From Escherichia coli (GTDB lineage: Bacteria; Pseudomonadota; Gammaproteobacteria; Enterobacterales; Enterobacteriaceae): a stretch of DNA of 64,000 nucleotides. The stretch lies in assembly GCF_051903065.1 (NCBI RefSeq), contig NZ_CP178438.1. One strand, given 5' to 3'. The notes under the pieces were generated by a model. It searched no databases and was not told the DNA's origin. It saw nothing but the letters and a program-made list of their open reading frames with translations. This document shows, one piece after another, positions 3,779 to 56,500 of this stretch. Numbering within the stretch: the first letter of the stretch is position 1; each line of letters starts with the position of its first letter. A program made the position numbers and the translations under genes.

Positions 3779-5064
3779 TTCTGCTCGCGTTCGATAGCGC
3801 GCCAGCCGATATCTTTCCGGCAGAAGCAGTCGTCCCAGTGAATATCGGTCATTAAGGCATAAGCGCGTTTCTGCGCTTCTGCCACGGTATGACCCAGCGC
3901 GGTGACGCACAGTACGCGCCCGCCGCTGGTCACTACCTGCTCGTTATCCGCCAGTTTCGTGCCCGCGTGGAACACTTTGCCGTCAGCCACTTCTTCCAGC
4001 GGCAGGCCGTGGATCACATCGCCGGTGCGGTAATCGCCCGGATATCCACCCGCAGCCATCACCACGCCGAGAGAAGCACGTTCATCCCACTCTGACGTTT
4101 TCTCGTCCAGTTTGCCTTCACAGGCCGCCAGGCAGAGCTCAACCAGATCGGACTTCATGCGCAGCATAATCGGCTGGGTTTCCGGATCGCCAAAGCGGCA
4201 GTTAAATTCAATAACCTTCGGATTGCCCTGTTTGTCGATCATCAGGCCCGCGTAGAGAAAACCGGTGTAGGTGTTGCCTTCCGCCGCCATGCCTTTCACG
4301 GTTGGCCAGATAATACGTTCCATGGTGCGCTGATGAACTTCATCGGTTACTACCGGCGCGGGGGAGTAAGCGCCCATCCCGCCCGTGTTTGGTCCGGTAT
4401 CTTTATCGCCTACGCGTTTGTGATCCTGGCTGGTAGCCATCGGCAGCACATGCTCGCCGTCCACCATCACGATAAAGCTCGCTTCTTCGCCATCGAGGAA
4501 CTCTTCGATAACGATGCGATGACCCGCGTCGCCAAAAGCGTTGCCCGCCAGCATATCGTGAACAGCCGCTTCCGCTTCTTCCAGCGTCATCGCCACGATA
4601 ACGCCTTTCCCGGCAGCCAGACCGTCCGCTTTAATGACGATTGGCGCGCCTTTCTCACGCAGATACGCCAGCGCAGGTTCTACCTCGGTGAAGTTCTGGT
4701 ATTCCGCCGTAGGGATCTTATGGCGGGCCAGGAAATCTTTGGTAAACGCTTTTGAGCCTTCCAGTTGGGCCGCACCTGCGGTTGGGCCGAAGATTTTCAG
4801 CCCGGCAGCGCGGAAGGTATCGACCACGCCTTTCACCAGCGGCGCTTCCGGGCCGACGATGGTCAGATCAATCTTTTCGTTTTGTGCGAAATCCAACAGC
4901 GCCGGGATATCGGTCACGCCGATAGCAACGTTTTGCAGCGCGGGTTCCAGCGCAGTGCCTGCATTACCCGGAGCAACAAAAACAGTCTCAACCAGCGGCG
5001 ACTGGGCCGCTTTCCAGGCCAGCGCGTGCTCGCGCCCGCCGTTACCAATCACTAATACTTTCAT
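3775..5064 (-). CDS. purD: Phosphoribosylamine-glycine ligase PurD
   Basis: 429-aa ORF starting MKVLVIGNGGREHALAWK (ATP-grasp); its stop overlaps the zraR stop by 4 bp. Confidence 0.95.
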   Translation of the reverse strand: MKVLVIGNGGREHALAWKAAQSPLVETVFVAPGNAGTALEPALQNVAIGVTDIPALLDFAQNEKIDLTIVGPEAPLVKGVVDTFRAAGLKIFGPTAGAAQLEGSKAFTKDFLARHKIPTAEYQNFTEVEPALAYLREKGAPIVIKADGLAAGKGVIVAMTLEEAEAAVHDMLAGNAFGDAGHRIVIEEFLDGEEASFIVMVDGEHVLPMATSQDHKRVGDKDTGPNTGGMGAYSPAPVVTDEVHQRTMERIIWPTVKGMAAEGNTYTGFLYAGLMIDKQGNPKVIEFNCRFGDPETQPIMLRMKSDLVELCLAACEGKLDEKTSEWDERASLGVVMAAGGYPGDYRTGDVIHGLPLEEVADGKVFHAGTKLADNEQVVTSGGRVLCVTALGHTVAEAQKRAYALMTDIHWDDCFCRKDIGWRAIEREQN

Positions 5065-7280: not shown

Positions 7281-8822
<1,542 letters not shown>

Positions 8823-8907
8823 CCTTAAAGAAGCGTACTTTGCAGTGCTCACACAGATTGTCTGATAGAAAGTGAAAAGCAAGGCGTCTTGCGAAGCAGA
8901 CTGATAC

Positions 8908-8983
8908 GTCCCCTTCGTCTAGAGGCCCAGGACACCGCCCTTTCACGGCGGTAACAGGGGTTCGAATCCCCTAGGGGACGCCA
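8908..8983 (+). tRNA. gltV: tRNA-Glu (UUC) in the 16S-23S spacer
   Basis: GTCCCCTTCGTCTAGAGGCCCAGGACACCGCCCTTTCACGGCGGTAACAGGGGTTCGAATCCCCTAGGGGACGCCA, 76 nt with encoded CCA. Confidence 0.97.
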
Positions 8984-9176
8984 CTTGCTGGTTTGTGAGT
9001 GAAAGTCGCCGACCTTAATATCTCAAAACTCATCTTCGGGTGATGTTTGAGATATTTGCTCTTTAAAAATCTGGATCAAGCTGAAAATTGAAACACTGAA
9101 CAACGAAAGTTGTTCGTGAGTCTCTCAAATTTTCGCAACACGATGATGAATCGAAAGAAACATCTTCGGGTTGTGA

Positions 9177-12079
<2,903 letters not shown>

Positions 12080-12172
12080 ACAACGCCGAAGCTGTTTTGG
12101 CGGATTGAGAGAAGATTTTCAGCCTGATACAGATTAAATCAGAACGCAGAAGCGGTCTGATAAAACAGAATT

Positions 12173-12292
12173 TGCCTGGCGGCCGTAGCGCGGTGGTCCC
12201 ACCTGACCCCATGCCGAACTCAGAAGTGAAACGCCGTAGCGCCGATGGTAGTGTGGGGTCTCCCCATGCGAGAGTAGGGAACTGCCAGGCAT
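12173..12292 (+). rRNA. rrfE: 5S ribosomal RNA (rrfE)
   Basis: TGCCTGGCGGCCGTAGCGCGGTGGTCCCACCTGACCCCATGCCGAACTCAG ... GGGAACTGCCAGGCAT; 120 nt. Confidence 0.98.
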
Positions 12293-40329: not shown

Positions 40330-40570
40330 GGGTGGGCGCAGAGCGATACTTCGCTACTATTTTCACCCAGAAGTGCTCCACCACTTGCGAAACGCCCGAC
40401 TGCGAACGCTTCTGGTGACAACCCAGGGGATTCAGCCCCTGTAGCCGATGATGAACGTGGCCAGCCGTTCAATCACCTCGGCGATGCACCCCCTCAGGTG
40501 TTATCACAGGACTGGCTCCTCCAACACCGTTACTTGGGCAACGCGCCTCTTCTGGCCTGCGCTAGCGCAG
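40330..40570 (-). promoter_or_regulatory. Lysine riboswitch (L-box) in the lysC 5' leader
   Basis: Reverse complement contains GAGGCGCGTTGCCCAAGTAACGGTGTTGGAGGAGCCAGTCCTGTGATAACACCTGAGGGGGTGCATCGCCGAGGTGATTGAACGGCTGGCCACG..., which I recognise as the E. coli lysC leader; boundaries approximate. Confidence 0.8.
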
Positions 40571-40795: not shown

Positions 40796-42445
40796 ATGAA
40801 AAACATCAATCCAACGCAGACCGCTGCCTGGCAGGCACTACAGAAACACTTCGATGAAATGAAAGACGTTACGATCGCCGATCTTTTTGCTAAAGACGGC
40901 GATCGTTTTTCTAAGTTCTCCGCAACCTTCGACGATCAGATGCTGGTGGATTACTCCAAAAACCGCATCACTGAAGAGACGCTGGCGAAATTACAAGATC
41001 TGGCGAAAGAGTGCGATCTGGCGGGCGCGATTAAGTCGATGTTCTCTGGCGAGAAGATCAACCGCACTGAAAACCGCGCCGTGCTGCACGTAGCGCTGCG
41101 TAACCGTAGCAATACCCCGATTCTGGTTGATGGCAAAGACGTAATGCCGGAAGTCAACGCGGTGCTGGAGAAGATGAAAACCTTCTCACAAGCGATTATC
41201 TCCGGTGAGTGGAAGGGTTATACCGGCAAAGCAATCACTGACGTAGTGAACATCGGGATCGGCGGTTCTGACCTCGGCCCGTACATGGTGACCGAAGCAC
41301 TGCGTCCGTACAAAAATCACCTGAACATGCACTTTGTTTCTAACGTCGATGGGACTCACATCGCGGAAGTGCTGAAAAAAGTAAACCCGGAAACCACGCT
41401 GTTCCTGGTAGCATCTAAAACCTTCACCACTCAGGAAACCATGACCAACGCCCATAGCGCGCGTGACTGGTTCCTGAAAGCGGCAGGTGATGAAAAACAC
41501 GTTGCGAAACACTTTGCGGCGCTCTCAACCAATGCCAAAGCCGTTGGCGAGTTTGGTATTGATACTGCCAACATGTTCGAGTTCTGGGACTGGGTCGGTG
41601 GCCGTTACTCTTTGTGGTCAGCGATTGGCCTGTCGATTGTTCTCTCCATCGGCTTTGATAACTTCGTTGAACTGCTTTCTGGCGCACACGCGATGGACAA
41701 GCATTTCTCCACCACGCCTGCCGAGAAAAACCTGCCTGTCCTGCTGGCGCTGATTGGCATCTGGTACAACAATTTCTTTGGTGCGGAAACTGAAGCGATT
41801 CTGCCGTATGACCAGTATATGCACCGTTTTGCGGCGTACTTCCAGCAGGGCAATATGGAGTCCAACGGTAAGTATGTTGACCGTAACGGTAACGTTGTGG
41901 ATTACCAGACTGGCCCGATTATCTGGGGTGAACCAGGCACTAACGGTCAGCACGCGTTCTACCAGCTGATCCACCAGGGAACCAAAATGGTACCGTGCGA
42001 TTTCATCGCTCCGGCTATCACCCATAACCCGCTCTCTGATCACCACCAGAAACTGCTGTCTAACTTCTTCGCCCAGACCGAAGCGCTGGCGTTTGGTAAA
42101 TCCCGCGAAGTGGTTGAGCAGGAATATCGCGATCAGGGTAAAGATCCGGCAACGCTTGACTACGTGGTGCCGTTCAAAGTGTTCGAAGGTAACCGCCCGA
42201 CCAACTCTATCCTGTTGCGCGAAATCACTCCGTTCAGCCTGGGTGCGTTGATTGCGCTGTATGAGCACAAAATCTTTACTCAGGGCGTGATCCTGAACAT
42301 CTTCACCTTCGACCAGTGGGGCGTGGAACTGGGTAAACAGCTGGCGAACCGTATTCTGCCAGAGCTGAAAGATGATAAAGAAATCAGCAGCCACGATAGC
42401 TCGACCAATGGTCTGATTAACCGCTATAAAGCGTGGCGCGGTTAA
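40796..42445 (+). CDS. pgi: Glucose-6-phosphate isomerase
   Basis: 549 aa from [34 protein letters not shown]. Confidence 0.96.
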
Positions 42446-42455
42446 TCATCGTTCA

Positions 42456-42552
<97 letters not shown>

Positions 42553-42615
42553 TCGATGCCGATATGTACATCGTATTCGGCAATTAATGCATAGCACGAT
42601 TAATTAAATAACCTT

Positions 42616-42652
42616 AAAAACAATGCCGACTATAAGTCGGCATTGTTTTATC
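42616..42652 (+). terminator. Rho-independent terminator downstream of pgi
   Basis: Hairpin caatgccgact-ataa-gtcggcattg followed by ttttatc. Confidence 0.75.
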
Positions 42653-42957
42653 AGATAAATCTCCTTGTCTGTGATTTAACGGAAATCATACCGTGAGGTT
42701 AATCCTAAAATAGATTTTTAATCGTGATTTATTTCGGAAAATACTCAGATTAATTACTTTTGCTTTTATTTTAACACTATGATTTTTAATGTTATTTATA
42801 TATAAGTTGTAGCTTATATTTGATATTCATTCCAATTATCCTAAAACCCCATCTCTAATTCCCCGCGCCGTAATTCGCATGCTTTAGTTGTGTATACTCG
42901 ATCCCGCCCGAAATGTTTTTGGGTAAATCTCCATTCATTCAATGAAGGGAAATTGTT

Positions 42958-43200
42958 ATGAAAAAAGTTCTGTATGGCATTTTTGCCATATCTGCGCTTG
43001 CGGCGACTTCTGCGTGGGCTGCACCTGTACAGGTGGGCGAAGCGGCAGGGTCGGCAGCAACGTCGGTTTCGGCGGGTAGTTCCTCCGCGACCAGCGTCAG
43101 CACCGTAAGCTCGGCGGTGGGTGTCGCGCTCGCGGCAACCGGTGGCGGTGATGGTTCTAATACCGGGACCACAACAACCACGACCACCAGTACCCAGTAA
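42958..43200 (+). CDS. yjbE: Thr/Ser/Gly-rich secreted protein YjbE (GfcA-like)
   Basis: 80 aa with signal peptide, then a low-complexity tail ending [12 protein letters not shown]. Confidence 0.85.
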
Positions 43201-43313
43201 TAAAGTATGTATCCCCAAAATAATTCGAGTCATCGCATCTGTGGCTTGAAGTATGAAGGGATTTACCATAACCACACTCCGGTGTGGTTATTCTGCCCCT
43301 CTGGAGAAGAGTC

Positions 43314-43952
43314 GTGAAGCGACCTGCACTCATTCTTATCTGCCTGCTATTACAGGCCTGTTCAGCCACGACTAAAGAGCTGGGCAATTCACTGTGGGAC
43401 AGTCTGTTCGGTACGCCAGGTGTACAGCTGACGGACGATGATATTCAAAATATGCCCTACGCCAGCCAGTACATGCAGCTTAATGGCGGGCCGCAGTTGT
43501 TTGTGGTGCTGGCCTTCGCTGAAGACGGACAACAAAAATGGGTCACTCAGGATCAGGCCACTCTCGTCACACAACATGGTCGTCTGGTGAAGACTCTGCT
43601 TGGCGGCGACAACTTGATTGAGGTGAATAACCTTGCCGCCGACCCGCTGATTAAACCCGCACAAATCATTGATGGTGCAACCTGGACGCGCACGATGGGC
43701 TGGACCGAGTACCAGCAGGTACGCTACGCCACCGCACGCTCAGTCTTCAAATGGGATGGCACCGATACCGTCAAGGTCGGCAGCGATGAAACCCCGGTTC
43801 GCGTGCTGGACGAAGAAGTCTCCACCGACCAGGCGCGCTGGCATAACCGCTACTGGATCGACAGCGAAGGGCAAATTCGCCAGTCGGAACAGTATCTCGG
43901 CGCGGATTATTTCCCGGTGAAAACCACCCTCATCAAGGCGGCAAAACAATGA
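43314..43952 (+). CDS. yjbF: Lipoprotein YjbF (GfcB-like)
   Basis: Probable GTG start at 43314 preceded by GGAGAAG; lipobox LLQAC-S. Confidence 0.8.
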   Translation: MKRPALILICLLLQACSATTKELGNSLWDSLFGTPGVQLTDDDIQNMPYASQYMQLNGGPQLFVVLAFAEDGQQKWVTQDQATLVTQHGRLVKTLLGGDNLIEVNNLAADPLIKPAQIIDGATWTRTMGWTEYQQVRYATARSVFKWDGTDTVKVGSDETPVRVLDEEVSTDQARWHNRYWIDSEGQIRQSEQYLGADYFPVKTTLIKAAKQ

Positions 43953-44686
43953 TCAAACAAACTTTTGTCGCGTTGCTTTTGAGTGTGGGAGCGTCATCGG
44001 TCTTCGCGGCAGGAACCGTCAAGGTGTTCAGCAATGGCAGCAGTGAGGCCAAAACACTAACAGGCGCAGAGCATTTAATCGATCTGGTAGGCCAACCGCG
44101 GCTGGCAAACAGCTGGTGGCCCGGTGCGGTGATCAGCGAAGAGCTGGCAACGGCGGCAGCATTGCGTCAGCAGCAGGCGTTGCTGACACGGCTGGCAGAA
44201 CAGGGCGCAGATTCCAGCGCCGACGATGCCGCTGCGATTAACGCCTTACGCCAGCAAATTCAGGCGTTGAAGGTGACGGGCAGGCAAAAAATCAATCTTG
44301 ATCCCGATATCGTCCGCGTTGCTGAACGCGCTAACCCGCCGTTGCAGGGCAACTACACGCTGTGGGTCGGACCACCACCGTCCACGGTCACGTTGTTCGG
44401 GCTTATCAGCCGTCCTGGCAATCAGCCATTCACTCCCGGTCGCGACGTGGCGAGCTATCTCTCCGGGCAAAGTCTGCTTAGCGGTGCGGATCGTAGCTAC
44501 GCGTGGGTGGTTTACCCGGACGGACGCACACAAAAAGCGCCGGTGGCTTACTGGAACAAGCGTCACGTAGAGCCGATGCCCGGCAGCATTATTTATGTTG
44601 GCCTCGCGGACTCCGTCTGGAGTGAGATGCCTGATGCCCTTAACGCCGACATTCTTCAGACTCTGACGCAGCGGATACCTCAATAA
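43949..44686 (+). CDS. yjbG: Periplasmic protein YjbG (GfcC-like)
   Basis: 245 aa with signal peptide; its start overlaps the yjbF stop. Confidence 0.82.
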
Positions 44687-46782
44687 TGAAAAAAAGACAT
44701 CTGCTTAGCTTACTGGCGCTGGGCATTAGCACAGCTTGCTACGGCGAAACATATCCTGCGCCCATTGGTCCGTCGCAGTCGGATTTCGGTGGCGTAGGAT
44801 TATTACAAACGCCCACCGCGCGTATGGCACGGGAAGGGGAGTTGAGTCTGAACTATCGTGATAACGATCAGTACCGTTATTACTCAGCTTCAGTGCAACT
44901 CTTCCCGTGGCTGGAAACAACGCTGCGCTACACCGACGTGCGCACCCGGCAGTACAGCAGCGTCGAAGCGTTCTCTGGCGATCAAACGTATAAAGATAAA
45001 GCCTTCGATCTCAAACTGCGTTTGTGGGAAGAGAGTTATTGGCTGCCGCAAGTGGCGGTTGGTGCGCGGGATATCGGCGGTACGGGGCTGTTTGATGCGG
45101 AATATCTTGTTGCCAGCAAAGCCTGGGGGCCGTTCGATTTTACGCTCGGCCTGGGCTGGGGATATCTGGGCACCAGCGGTAATGTGAAAAATCCGCTCTG
45201 TTCAGCCAGTGATAAATATTGCTATCGCGATAACAGCTACAAACAGGCGGGATCTATCGACGGTAGCCAGATGTTCCACGGTCCTGCCTCACTGTTTGGC
45301 GGCGTGGAATACCAGACGCCCTGGCAACCGCTGCGCCTGAAACTGGAGTATGAAGGCAATAATTATCAGCAGGATTTTGCCGGGAAGCTGGAGCAAAAAA
45401 GTAAGTTTAACGTCGGGGCGATTTATCGCGTTACCGATTGGGCCGACGTTAACCTTAGCTATGAACGTGGCAACACCTTTATGTTTGGCATCACGCTGCG
45501 CACCAACTTTAACGATCTGCGCCCGTCTTACAACGATAACGCCCGCCCGCAATATCAACCGCAGCCGCAGGATGCCATTTTGCAGCATTCGGTGGTGGCG
45601 AATCAGTTAACGCTGTTGAAATACAATGCCGGACTTGCCGATCCGCAGATCCAGGCGAAAGGCGATACGCTGTATGTTACCGGCGAGCAGGTGAAATATC
45701 GTGATTCGCGCGAAGGGATCATCCGTGCTAATCGGATCGTGATGAATGATCTGCCGGATGGGATCAAGACGATCCGCGTTACGGAAAATCGCCTTAACAT
45801 GCCGCAGGTGACGACGGAAACGGATGTCGCCAGCCTGAAAAATCATCTCGCCGGAGAGCCGTTGGGCCACGAAACGAAGCTGGCGCAAAAACGCGTCGAG
45901 CCAGTGGTTCCGAAGTCCACCGAGCAGGGCTGGTATATCGACAAATCACGCTTTGATTTCCATATCGATCCGGTGCTGAACCAGTCGGTCGGTGGCCCGG
46001 AAAACTTTTACATGTATCAGCTCGGCGTGATGGGAACGGCAGATTTGTGGCTGACGGACCATCTGCTGACCACCGGCAGCCTGTTCGCTAACCTTGCCAA
46101 CAACTACGACAAGTTTAACTACACCAATCCGCCGCAGGACTCGCACTTACCGCGCGTGCGTACCCATGTGCGCGAGTATGTGCAGAACGATGTCTATGTG
46201 AATAACCTGCAAGCCAACTACTTCCAGCATCTGGGCAACGGCTTCTACGGTCAGGTCTACGGCGGCTATCTCGAAACCATGTTTGGCGGTGCGGGGGCAG
46301 AAGTGTTGTATCGCCCGCTGGACAGCAACTGGGCGTTTGGTGTGGATGCCAACTACGTTAAACAGCGCGACTGGCGTAGTGCAAAAGATATGATGAAATT
46401 CACCGACTACAGCGTGAAAACCGGACATCTGACCGCCTACTGGACGCCATCTTTCGCTCAGGATGTGTTAGTTAAAGCCAGCGTCGGGCAGTATCTGGCA
46501 GGGGATAAAGGCGGCACGCTGGAGATCGCCAAACGCTTTGATAGCGGTGTGGTGGTGGGTGGCTATGCCACGATCACTAATGTTTCGAAAGAGGAGTACG
46601 GCGAAGGGGACTTCACCAAAGGCGTGTATGTCTCTGTACCGTTGGATCTCTTCTCGTCTGGCCCGACACGCAGCCGTGCGGCAATTGGCTGGACGCCGCT
46701 GACGCGTGACGGTGGTCAGCAACTTGGGCGTAAGTTCCAGTTGTATGACATGACCAGCGACCGTAGCGTCAATTTCCGCTAA
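44686..46782 (+). CDS. yjbH: Outer-membrane beta-barrel protein YjbH (GfcD-like)
   Basis: 698 aa with signal peptide; start overlaps the yjbG stop; C-terminal aromatic residue (…RSVNFR). Confidence 0.85.
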
Positions 46783-46793
46783 GTCATGGGAAA

Positions 46794-46821
46794 GGTGCCA
46801 GTTTTCGCACTCACTGGCACC
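46794..46821. terminator. Hairpin terminator between convergent yjbH and yjbT
   Basis: ggtgccag-ttttcgcactca-ctggcacc, a GC-rich stem flanked by T-rich sequence. Confidence 0.6.
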
Positions 46822-46828
46822 TTCATTC

Positions 46829-47107
46829 TTAATGGCCTGTCGAGCCATCAGGAACGCAGTTCACCCCCGGTTTGCGATCTGGTGTGTAAAGGCGAAAACA
46901 TTCTGTCTTCCTGTCCGTCGATATCGGTTGCAGGTCTGGTTGCCTGAGCGACTGGGCCATCATTGGGCTGGAGACATTGCTTTGCGGTAGGTCGGCTTTA
47001 TCAGCAGTACCGAGCGGACCAGCATAAGCAGGAAGAACAGAGACTGATAACATCAAAGCAGCAAAATAAGGCTTCATTTTTACCACCTTTATCAGGTTAC
47101 GTTTCAT
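46829..47107 (-). CDS. yjbT: Small putative periplasmic protein YjbT
   Basis: 92-aa ORF; the internal Met (MKPYFAALMLSVSVLPAYA) gives a clean signal peptide, so the true start may be at 47077. Confidence 0.6.
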   Translation of the reverse strand: MKRNLIKVVKMKPYFAALMLSVSVLPAYAGPLGTADKADLPQSNVSSPMMAQSLRQPDLQPISTDRKTECFRLYTPDRKPGVNCVPDGSTGH

Positions 47108-47376
47108 TTGTTCCAGAGGAACATTGTCGATTTTTCGCGCATTGCTGGTGGCTGGGAATCACCTGAATGGGTGATTTTTGAATTACCGGCTTTGGTGCGG
47201 TTTGTCTTGCCGGATGCGCCGCCAGGCGCGGCTTATCCGGCCTACGGGTAGGTATATCCGGCTTTGGTGGAGGCGCGCTCCAAATCCAGGCTGAACAAAA
47301 CATACACAAAAAATATAGATCTCCGTCACATTTTTGCGTTATACAGGAAGCTCGCCACTGTGAAGGAGGTACTGCT

Positions 47377-47787
47377 ATGACGTCACTCTCTCGTCCGCGC
47401 GTGGAGTTTATCTCCACCATTTTGCAGACCGTACTCAATCTTGGCCTGCTGTGCCTCGGCCTTATTTTGGTTGTCTTCCTCGGCAAAGAAACGGTGCATC
47501 TGGCTGATGTGCTGTTCGCGCCAGAACAAACCAGCAAATATGAGCTGGTAGAAGGACTGGTGGTTTACTTTCTCTATTTCGAATTTATCGCGCTGATTGT
47601 GAAGTACTTTCAGTCCGGTTTTCACTTCCCGCTACGTTACTTTGTCTATATTGGGATCACCGCCATTGTGCGCTTGATCATCGTCGATCATAAATCGCCA
47701 CTGGATGTGTTGATCTACTCGGCTGCGATCCTGTTACAGGTGATCACCCTGTGGCTGTGTAATTCGAAACGGCTGAAGCGGGAGTAA
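47377..47787 (+). CDS. psiE: Phosphate-starvation-inducible inner-membrane protein PsiE
   Basis: 136-aa polytopic membrane protein in the K-12 position. Confidence 0.88.
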
Positions 47788-52127: not shown

Positions 52128-52149
52128 GGGGTTCTTCCTCATTCCAGGA

Positions 52150-52275
52150 CGGATAAGGCTTTCACGCCTTATCCGACAACAACTGCCTGATGCGACGCTG
52201 ACGCGTCTTATCAGACCTACATACGTTTCGGTTTTGTAGGCCGGACAAGGCGTTCACGCCGCATCCGGCATTTCA
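52150..52275. repeat. REP/BIME cluster in the malE-malF intergenic region
   Basis: ggataaggctttcacgccttatccgac ... gcctgatgcgacgctgacgcgtcttatcagacctac ... gtaggccggacaaggcgttcacgccgcatccggc. Confidence 0.9.
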
Positions 52276-56363: not shown

Positions 56364-56377
56364 TAGCAAAACCTGGG

Positions 56378-56500
<123 letters not shown>

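Follow-up and report, generated by a model that had tools for sequence, protein, structure and literature searches.

The stretch of Escherichia coli DNA considered here (hereafter the window) comprises 64,000 nucleotides of contig NZ_CP178438.1, RefSeq assembly GCF_051903065.1, and carries at 42958-46782 four plus-strand genes, seen both in a six-frame list of open reading frames (ORFs) and in the RefSeq annotation, that constitute the chromosomal yjbEFGH locus (Table 1). An earlier note on this DNA had already named it as such; DNA identity, the RefSeq annotation and Pfam concur, the coordinates it gave are exact according to RefSeq, and the four genes are co-directional, as it had said. Pfam scores lie far above the cut-offs for YjbE (PF11106, 113.6 bits), YjbF (PF11102, 214.8 bits), YjbG (GfcC_N, 169.3 bits, and GfcC_C, 144 bits) and YjbH (PF06082, 900 bits), while NCBIfam assigned no family to any of the five proteins searched. 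The order of genes is lysC, pgi, yjbE, yjbF, yjbG, yjbH, yjbT, psiE, xylE, with yjbT, an ORF of 92 amino acids (aa), convergent with yjbH. A megablast search of 42400-47200 against complete E. coli genomes gave 100% identity to NZ_AP045789.1 (strain 23CRST027) and 97.6% to K-12, and at least 80% of this 4.8-kb query was present in 5413 of the 5426 genomes (99.8%). The stretch is the E. coli yjbEFGH operon, which belongs to the core genome. That the four ORFs might be chance ORFs or a pseudogene array was ruled out by the Pfam scores, by their conservation and by the ratio of nonsynonymous to synonymous differences (pN/pS) given below.

Beyond E. coli, 80 Enterobacteriaceae loci (one genome per species) were found by scanning with YjbF. 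Upstream of the yjb locus stands pgi in 75 of the 80, being missing only where the stored DNA ends, and the pgi-yjbEFGH synteny is kept in all loci that extend far enough. The YjbF homologue search listed only relatives at least 76% identical and provided no distant context from among them. In the window, the overlapping stop and start codons described in the earlier note hold for yjbF/yjbG, which share 4 nt (ATGA), and for yjbG/yjbH, which share 1 nt (TAATG), but not for yjbE and yjbF, which are separated by a 113-nt spacer (43201-43313); the ORF list gives the yjbF frame as 43284/43314-43952, and RefSeq places the start at 43314. With no strong terminator in the yjbE-yjbF spacer, the common strand and the two overlaps are compatible with co-transcription of all four genes, which has been reported in the literature.

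BLASTP against the gfc locus of K-12 aligned YjbF with GfcB (39% identity, E 2e-54), YjbG with GfcC (42%, E 2e-67) and YjbH with GfcD (65%, E 0), and on these alignments YjbF, YjbG and YjbH are clear paralogues of the three Gfc proteins. The pairwise comparisons thus sustain the paralogy with the group 4 capsule gfc locus that the earlier note had proposed, and the architecture that it had called parallel to gfcABCD is indeed so, the gene junctions included. The closest solved structures are PDB 2IN5 (YmcC, which is GfcB) for YjbF, with E 4e-43, and PDB 3P42 (GfcC) for YjbG, with E 2e-54; the PDB search matched no solved structure to YjbH. YjbF carries a lipobox (LLQA-C) and YjbG a type I signal peptide (cleavage VFA/AG), in keeping with the lipoprotein and the periplasmic protein of the earlier note.

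For YjbH, the large outer-membrane beta-barrel of that note is upheld in that the protein belongs to PF06082, but published work predicts two barrels and not one. GfcD and YjbH have been predicted to begin with a FapF-like barrel and to end with a laterally gated, PgaA-like one, the two flanking a periplasmic domain (PMC8592465, PMC11494523, PMC8346858, PMC9603273). In this layout, for which the published predictions include YjbH, an N-terminal 12-stranded barrel is followed by a central globular domain and a C-terminal barrel of 12-13 strands, through whose lateral gate lipid-anchored polysaccharide has been proposed to leave. GfcD, a non-acylated protein, is the outer-membrane partner to which GfcB and GfcC bind (PMC8592465). 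Our own low-confidence AlphaFold2 model of YjbH has 12 strands (residues 51-273), an alpha/beta domain (301-389) and 12-14 further strands (401-650), and would fit the published double-barrel layout at the level of secondary structure only. As a separate observation, three cysteines of YjbH do not vary among 24 YjbH/GfcD sequences: Cys172, Cys179 and Cys18. The last lies in a lipobox-like ISTAC motif (residues 1-21; 44686-44750), which contrasts with the report that GfcD lacks acylation (PMC8592465).

We consider it very probable that yjbEFGH is a core-genome, RcsA-RcsB-activated envelope-stress operon for an outer-membrane polysaccharide export or anchoring module, and a paralogue of gfcABCD. 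The operon has been linked to an exopolysaccharide distinct from colanic acid, and its dependence on RcsA and RcsB has been reported (PMC5461412, PMC5651002, PMC8117528). In such a module YjbF and YjbG would dock on YjbH, which would pass a possibly lipid-linked polysaccharide across the outer membrane. The operon has no glycosyltransferase, flippase, polymerase or Wza/Wzb/Wzc genes, and the module would therefore rely on synthesis machinery encoded elsewhere.

Table 1. Features of the yjbEFGH locus and of its flanking spacers, in window coordinates.
Feature	Position	Strand	Remarks
REP/BIME (repetitive extragenic palindromic/bacterial interspersed mosaic) element directly after pgi	42475..42546	+	Rfam naRNA4 RF02564, 81.3 bits vs gathering 59.5
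Rfam STnc430 (RF02053) match, candidate enterobacterial small RNA	42612..42761	-	full-length, 65.9 bits vs gathering 47
Hairpin AATGCCGAC/GTCGGCATT with T-run on both strands	42622..42649	both	read from sequence
RcsB-type box 1 (candidate), TCAGATAAATCTCC	42651..42664	+	1 mismatch to TNRGAN4TCYNA; TNRGA kept in 78% of 76
RcsB/RcsAB-type box 2 (candidate), plus TGAGGTTAATCCTA, minus TAGGATTAACCTCA	42694..42707	both	minus strand exact TNRGAN4MCTNA match
RcsB-type box 3 (candidate), TCGGAAAATACTCA	42734..42747	+	exact TNRGAN4MCTNA; TNRGA half kept in 100% of 76
Sigma70-like promoter site	42795..42768	-	ATAACA-16-TAAAAT with TG; -10 ends 7 nt before model position 1
Near-invariant block before yjbE	42886..42957	+	most columns at least 95% identical in 76 sequences
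yjbE	42958-43200	+	80-aa precursor; 59-aa secreted Ser/Thr/Ala/Gly/Val-rich product; PF11106
Short imperfect-palindrome insert, Escherichia only	43209..43262		resembles truncated dispersed repeat
Hairpin AUAACCACAC-UCCG-GUGUGGUUAU between yjbE and yjbF	43268..43291	+	-14.8 kcal/mol, z -5.4, 0/200 shuffles
yjbF	43314-43952	+	GTG start; lipoprotein, GfcB paralogue; PF11102; outer membrane
yjbG	43949-44686	+	periplasmic, GfcC family; PF20616 + PF06251
yjbH	44686-46782	+	698-aa outer-membrane protein, YjbH/GfcD family; PF06082
Hairpin between convergent yjbH and yjbT	46787..46831		-19.4 kcal/mol, z -4.6, 0/200 shuffles

Rcs control, which the earlier note had mentioned as reported for this operon, is in agreement with the literature (PMC5461412, PMC5651002) and with conserved candidate boxes in the AT-rich spacer between pgi and yjbE. 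To describe these boxes we used an alignment of 76 distinct spacer sequences from Enterobacteriaceae and the structure-derived RcsB box TN(G/A)GAN4TC(T/C)NA with its lower-affinity form TNRGAN4MCTNA (PMC7913699). In the distal spacer, the half-site TNRGA is kept at three alignment positions and no others (100%, 100% and 78% of the sequences, against a background of about 1%), and apart from the three boxes found there this part of the spacer has no conserved points. Box 2 has TNRGA in 100% of the sequences and the full box in 72%, and its plus strand agrees with the RcsAB consensus at 10 of 14 positions and with the Salmonella rcsA box TAAGGTTTATCCGA at 11 of 14 (PMC7913699). Its invariant alignment columns T60, G63, A64, C70, T71 and A73 are the specified box positions T1, G4, A5, C11, T12 and A14, and its variation between genera (TAGGA, TCAGA, TCGGA, TAAGA) is confined to degenerate positions. 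Judged by these matches, box 2 would be the best candidate for an RcsAB box. Boxes 2 and 3 lie 40 bp apart in Escherichia and 51 bp apart in most other genera. The search for an RcsAB box upstream of yjbE, which the earlier note had suggested, thus had a divided outcome: the strict consensus TAAGAATATTCCTA was not found there, but three conserved candidate RcsB-type boxes were. Across the window, that consensus at up to 3 mismatches has three matches, no more than expected by chance. Phosphorylated RcsB together with RcsA would bind the boxes at 42651-42747 and activate a weak promoter nearer yjbE.

The small secreted first product was described in the earlier note as rich in Thr, Ser and Gly, and the composition of YjbE after removal of its signal peptide (...AWA/AP) agrees: five residue types (T13, S12, A11, G9, V7) account for 88% of the 59 aa of the mature protein. 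Among the Enterobacteriaceae loci, the median identity to the window is 90% for YjbE, 83% for YjbF, 66% for YjbG, 88.5% for YjbH and 94% for Pgi, and the corresponding pN/pS values, which are uncorrected (the proportion of synonymous differences, pS, being about 0.5-0.7 throughout and about 0.5 for yjbE), are 0.10 (mature part), 0.18, 0.31, 0.10 and 0.07. A 26-residue sequence at the C-terminus of YjbE is almost invariant and yet is encoded with 2-4 synonymous codons per site. Because the C-terminus is nearly invariant while its synonymous codons vary, and because pN/pS is about 0.1, the substitution pattern indicates that low-complexity YjbE is under purifying selection at the amino-acid level, and not under a constraint on composition only or on the DNA. 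Because synonymous sites vary freely, a separate explanation, that yjbE is conserved as DNA or RNA, was rejected.

Whether YjbE is also homologous to GfcA is less clear-cut. A BLASTP comparison of the two was not significant (E 65), and GfcA matched nothing relevant in Pfam, PF11106 included. We compared GfcA with YjbE-family profiles against shuffled sequences in which the signal peptide was left intact and the mature part kept its composition. With a profile of close YjbE orthologues, the full-sequence score of GfcA was reached by 1 of 2000 shuffles and its best single stretch by 373 of 2000; with the broader family profile, the full-sequence score was exceeded by none of 3000 shuffles and the best single stretch was reached by 285 of 3000. 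The alignment of YjbE and GfcA is co-linear, running through G-x-A-A-G, a Gly/Ala/Val-rich hydrophobic stretch, GDG-(G)S-x-NT and a Thr-run that ends in STT(R/Q); GfcA differs in that its hydrophobic segment is longer and its N-terminal part has additional Thr-rich sequence. Homology of YjbE and GfcA is plausible on this comparison but not demonstrated.

The wider family of YjbE is small. A profile search of 1.84 billion representative proteins returned only 37 clusters at E up to 0.001, the named ones being from Erwinia, Erwiniaceae and Kosakonia, and no member from outside Enterobacterales was seen among the clusters that carry names. We examined the surroundings of seven distant members, over 6 kb where the contigs were long enough and over shorter flanks elsewhere. 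One of them, P0128 (L087/L088), has the canonical yjbE-yjbF arrangement, and the other six (L084, L085, L086, L089, L090 and L092) have no yjbFGH-like genes in the sequenced flank. Among these orphans, the gene in L085 follows phage tail genes and that in L086 adjoins greB. A second copy of yjbE in Kosakonia (L093) is also an orphan, and is divergent from a gene for an RcsA-like GerE regulator (48.6 bits vs a cut-off of 162).

Between yjbE and yjbF, an exact 9+4+9 hairpin, UAACCACAC-NNNN-GUGUGGUUA, is present in all 65 of the 65 distinct spacers from Enterobacteriaceae. Its loops are only UUCG (57 spacers), UCCG (3), UGCG (3) and UACG (2), which form the stable UNCG tetraloop class, and it is usually followed by UUUUG and lies 20-25 nt before the start codon of yjbF. 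This hairpin may be an attenuator, a weak terminator or an element that stabilises the mRNA. As weak terminator or mRNA stabiliser, it would decouple yjbE from yjbFGH; yjbE would be translated separately, and the hairpin would hold the output of YjbE above that of the translationally coupled yjbF-yjbG-yjbH block. Most genera have a spacer of 60-65 nt; that of Escherichia, with about 50 extra nt before the hairpin, reaches 113-114 nt. A Citrobacter spacer (L029, about 4823-4950) has a 127-nt version of the insert. This version is an ERIC-like dispersed repeat, of which E. coli genomes carry a median of 11 copies. Other spacers of Citrobacter and Enterobacter have REP-like inserts after the hairpin. 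Insertions of the insertion sequence IS1 at the yjbE-yjbF spacer arise in laboratory evolution and activate Rcs (PMC8117528). The strong hairpin between the convergent yjbH and yjbT probably marks where the operon ends and is probably a bidirectional terminator; the terminator scan missed it because its loop is 10 nt long.

Upstream, the pgi-yjbE spacer is 512 nt long. The roughly 400 bp of AT-rich DNA that the earlier note placed before yjbE (42560-42957) are borne out, with 31.9% GC against 51.4% in the window, which puts them in the lowest 1.8% of 398-nt windows. This DNA is more than a simple promoter region: it contains the conserved candidate RcsB-type boxes, but the spacer is composite and also holds a REP element, the pgi terminator and a match to STnc430 on the minus strand. 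The REP element is in the spacer but outside the control region of the operon. The hairpin at 42622..42649 corresponds to the terminal stem of the Rfam STnc430 alignment, and its stem shows compensatory variation between genera (GCCGAC, GCCGGC, GCCGAT); it is predicted to be a bidirectional terminator, serving as the terminator of pgi and as the 3' end of the STnc430-like match. That match is directed away from yjbE and ends at the pgi terminator. Next to yjbE, the 72-nt block 42886-42957 contains a -10-like TATACT (42893-42898), the palindrome TTCATTCAATGAA (42934-42946) and a ribosome-binding site, AAGGGA; it is probably the core promoter and 5' untranslated region (UTR), though it may also be the target of a regulator. 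RNA folding of the putative yjbE 5' UTR was not significant (z -1.2). In 42400-43400 and 46700-47400, generic scans called neither a plus-strand promoter nor a terminator; the rules of the terminator scan do not cover the hairpins that were picked out by eye.

Several observations weigh against the proposed export or anchoring module under Rcs control. The Yjb-dependent polysaccharide has never been defined, and loss-of-function mutations in yjb lead to mucoidy and Rcs activation, not to a simple loss of polymer. The yjbE spacer has no match to the strict RcsAB consensus at up to 3 mismatches. The candidate boxes are 210-300 bp upstream of the start codon and fall within the minus-strand STnc430 match; in their favour, RcsB motifs 161-215 nt upstream of a start site have been documented for other genes (PMC7913699). 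The U-tract after the UNCG hairpin is short, and the generic scan does not call a terminator there. The AlphaFold2 model of YjbH, made from 24 close sequences, has a predicted local distance difference test (pLDDT) score of 51.6 and a predicted template modelling (pTM) score of 0.42. Finally, six of the seven distant YjbE-family genes are orphans.

Mutations in yjbE, yjbG and yjbH and IS1 insertions have been found to result in mucoidy or sedimentation resistance. Because the mutants are mucoid, the Yjb module may handle or anchor a polymer made elsewhere rather than one of its own, which fits the absence of biosynthetic genes. Taken to its full extent, this would mean that the module makes no polymer of its own, handles or anchors a cell-associated polysaccharide (colanic acid or one linked to lipopolysaccharide) or maintains the outer membrane, and that its loss perturbs the envelope and so activates Rcs. 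We regard this as possible, though on balance doubtful: predation-evolved mucoid E. coli clones were each mutated in yjbE, yjbG or yjbH, frameshifting insertions included, and the lack of biosynthetic genes and the co-regulation with cps by RcsA-RcsB point the same way, but published work sets the Yjb-dependent polymer apart from colanic acid, and the anchoring activity is putative. This explanation overlaps with the export or anchoring module rather than excluding it. A different role for the first gene seems unlikely, namely that YjbE is itself the cargo, a small, sequence-constrained and possibly glycosylated or fibre-forming protein that is overproduced, exported via the FapF-like barrel of YjbH and coats the cell or anchors polysaccharide. 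YjbE is as constrained as YjbH despite its reduced alphabet of residues, the conserved hairpin sets yjbE apart from the coupled FGH block, published fold recognition gives a FapF-like barrel, with speculation on peptide export and on modification of GfcA, and a polar IS1 insertion after yjbE triggers Rcs. Against this, export and modification of YjbE are hypothetical, the distant orphans and the second Kosakonia gene lack the supposed exporter in their flank, and the hairpin could merely stabilise the mRNA. Distinctly improbable, in our estimate, is the most extended version, in which YjbE would be a sequence-specific cargo or primer, perhaps O-glycosylated or fibre-forming, its output raised by the hairpin and its exit being via the YjbH barrel; its accumulation in the absence of YjbFGH would then activate Rcs and cause mucoidy, and the orphans of Erwinia and Kosakonia, one of which stands at the end of a prophage tail module, would be extra cargoes of the same exporter.

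As to regulation, the conserved elements of the distal spacer could instead be constrained as parts of a minus-strand STnc430 RNA and not as RcsB sites, which we hold to be improbable. The STnc430 match is above the gathering score and spans all three boxes, the minus strand carries a well-placed promoter-like site and a terminator for it, and the Rfam consensus structure pairs boxes 2 and 3, whose sequences are partly complementary. However, where one STnc430 arm changes (TAGGA to TCAGA, TCGGA or TAAGA), the other shows no compensating change; the columns that never vary are those that the RcsB box specifies, and those that do vary fall on its degenerate positions; the 11-nt difference in the spacing of boxes 2 and 3 is about one helical turn; and a literature search on STnc430 found no description of a function. 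The uncompensated changes and the 11-nt difference favour DNA sites over an RNA stem. The two readings are compatible and can coexist, and the STnc430 family may partly or largely reflect these candidate binding sites rather than an RNA.

Elsewhere in the window, RefSeq annotates a hypothetical protein of 47 aa at 47108-47251 on the plus strand, which begins directly after the yjbT start on the opposite strand. Weak REP/naRNA4-like matches fall at 47150-47242, within the region of this ORF, and the ORF may be an annotation artefact. REP-derived naRNA4 matches above the gathering score number four (18601-18678, 42475-42546, 52147-52217 and 56376-56446). A complete ribosomal RNA operon occupies 7281-12290 (16S, a tRNA at 8908-8980, 23S and 5S), and a lysine riboswitch precedes lysC at 40363-40559 on the minus strand.

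The yjbEFGH operon, its paralogy with gfcABCD, its Rcs control and the predicted two-barrel YjbH have all been published, and identification of the operon adds nothing new. The new details are minor: the constraint on YjbE, the UNCG hairpin in every spacer examined, and the mostly orphan distant YjbE genes. These side results are potentially useful for work on the function of the Yjb/Gfc module. The conserved candidate RcsB sites are concrete targets for mutation, the universally conserved hairpin probably sets the ratio of YjbE to YjbFGH, and the strong amino-acid-level selection indicated for YjbE is evidence for those who work on the module. They also suggest caution in the use of the Rfam STnc430 family, which may largely reflect these DNA sites.

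The nearest known system is yjbEFGH of K-12 (b4026-b4029), which is the same locus, with gene order, flanks and gene lengths alike and an identical YjbE accession; the differences are allelic only, and the window strain matches 23CRST027 fully over the stretch. The K-12 operon was reportedly described by Ferrieres et al. in 2007 (Microbiology, volume 153, page 1070; cited in PMC8592465 and PMC5461412). The cps (wza) and rcsA promoters belong, like that of yjbE, to the RcsA-dependent exopolysaccharide regulon. They have one box each, whereas yjbE has three candidate boxes, none of them within 3 mismatches of the strict RcsAB consensus. In fimbrial operons such as papA and fimA, a stable stem-loop follows the gene for the major subunit. 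There, as at yjbE, the stem-loop comes after a small first gene whose product is needed in abundance and before genes for assembly machinery, but YjbE is not known to be a structural subunit.

Related systems cited in the literature are orf1-wbfDCB of Vibrio and gfcABCD of Aeromonas (PMC8592465). In E. coli, gfcABCD is found in 3679 of the 5426 complete genomes (68%), compared with 99.8% for at least 80% of the yjbEFGH query. The spacer between gfcA and gfcB carries a hairpin different from that between yjbE and yjbF, and RNA folding of the gfcA-gfcB spacer as a whole was not significant. In both loci a gene for a small, Thr-rich secreted protein is followed by those for a lipoprotein, a periplasmic protein of the GfcC fold and, last, a YjbH/GfcD protein of 698 aa. 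Their junctions are alike too: after a gap of 106 nt in gfcABCD and 113 nt in yjbEFGH come overlaps of 4 nt and then 1 nt. However, in E. coli O127 and K-12 gfcABCD forms only the first half of the group 4 capsule operon gfcABCDE-etp-etk, which continues with homologues of wza, wzb and wzc (gfcE-etp-etk), whereas yjbH is followed by convergent yjbT and by psiE. With no Wza/Wzb/Wzc genes in that position, the yjbEFGH locus therefore parallels the gfcABCD half only and not the group 4 capsule operon as a whole.

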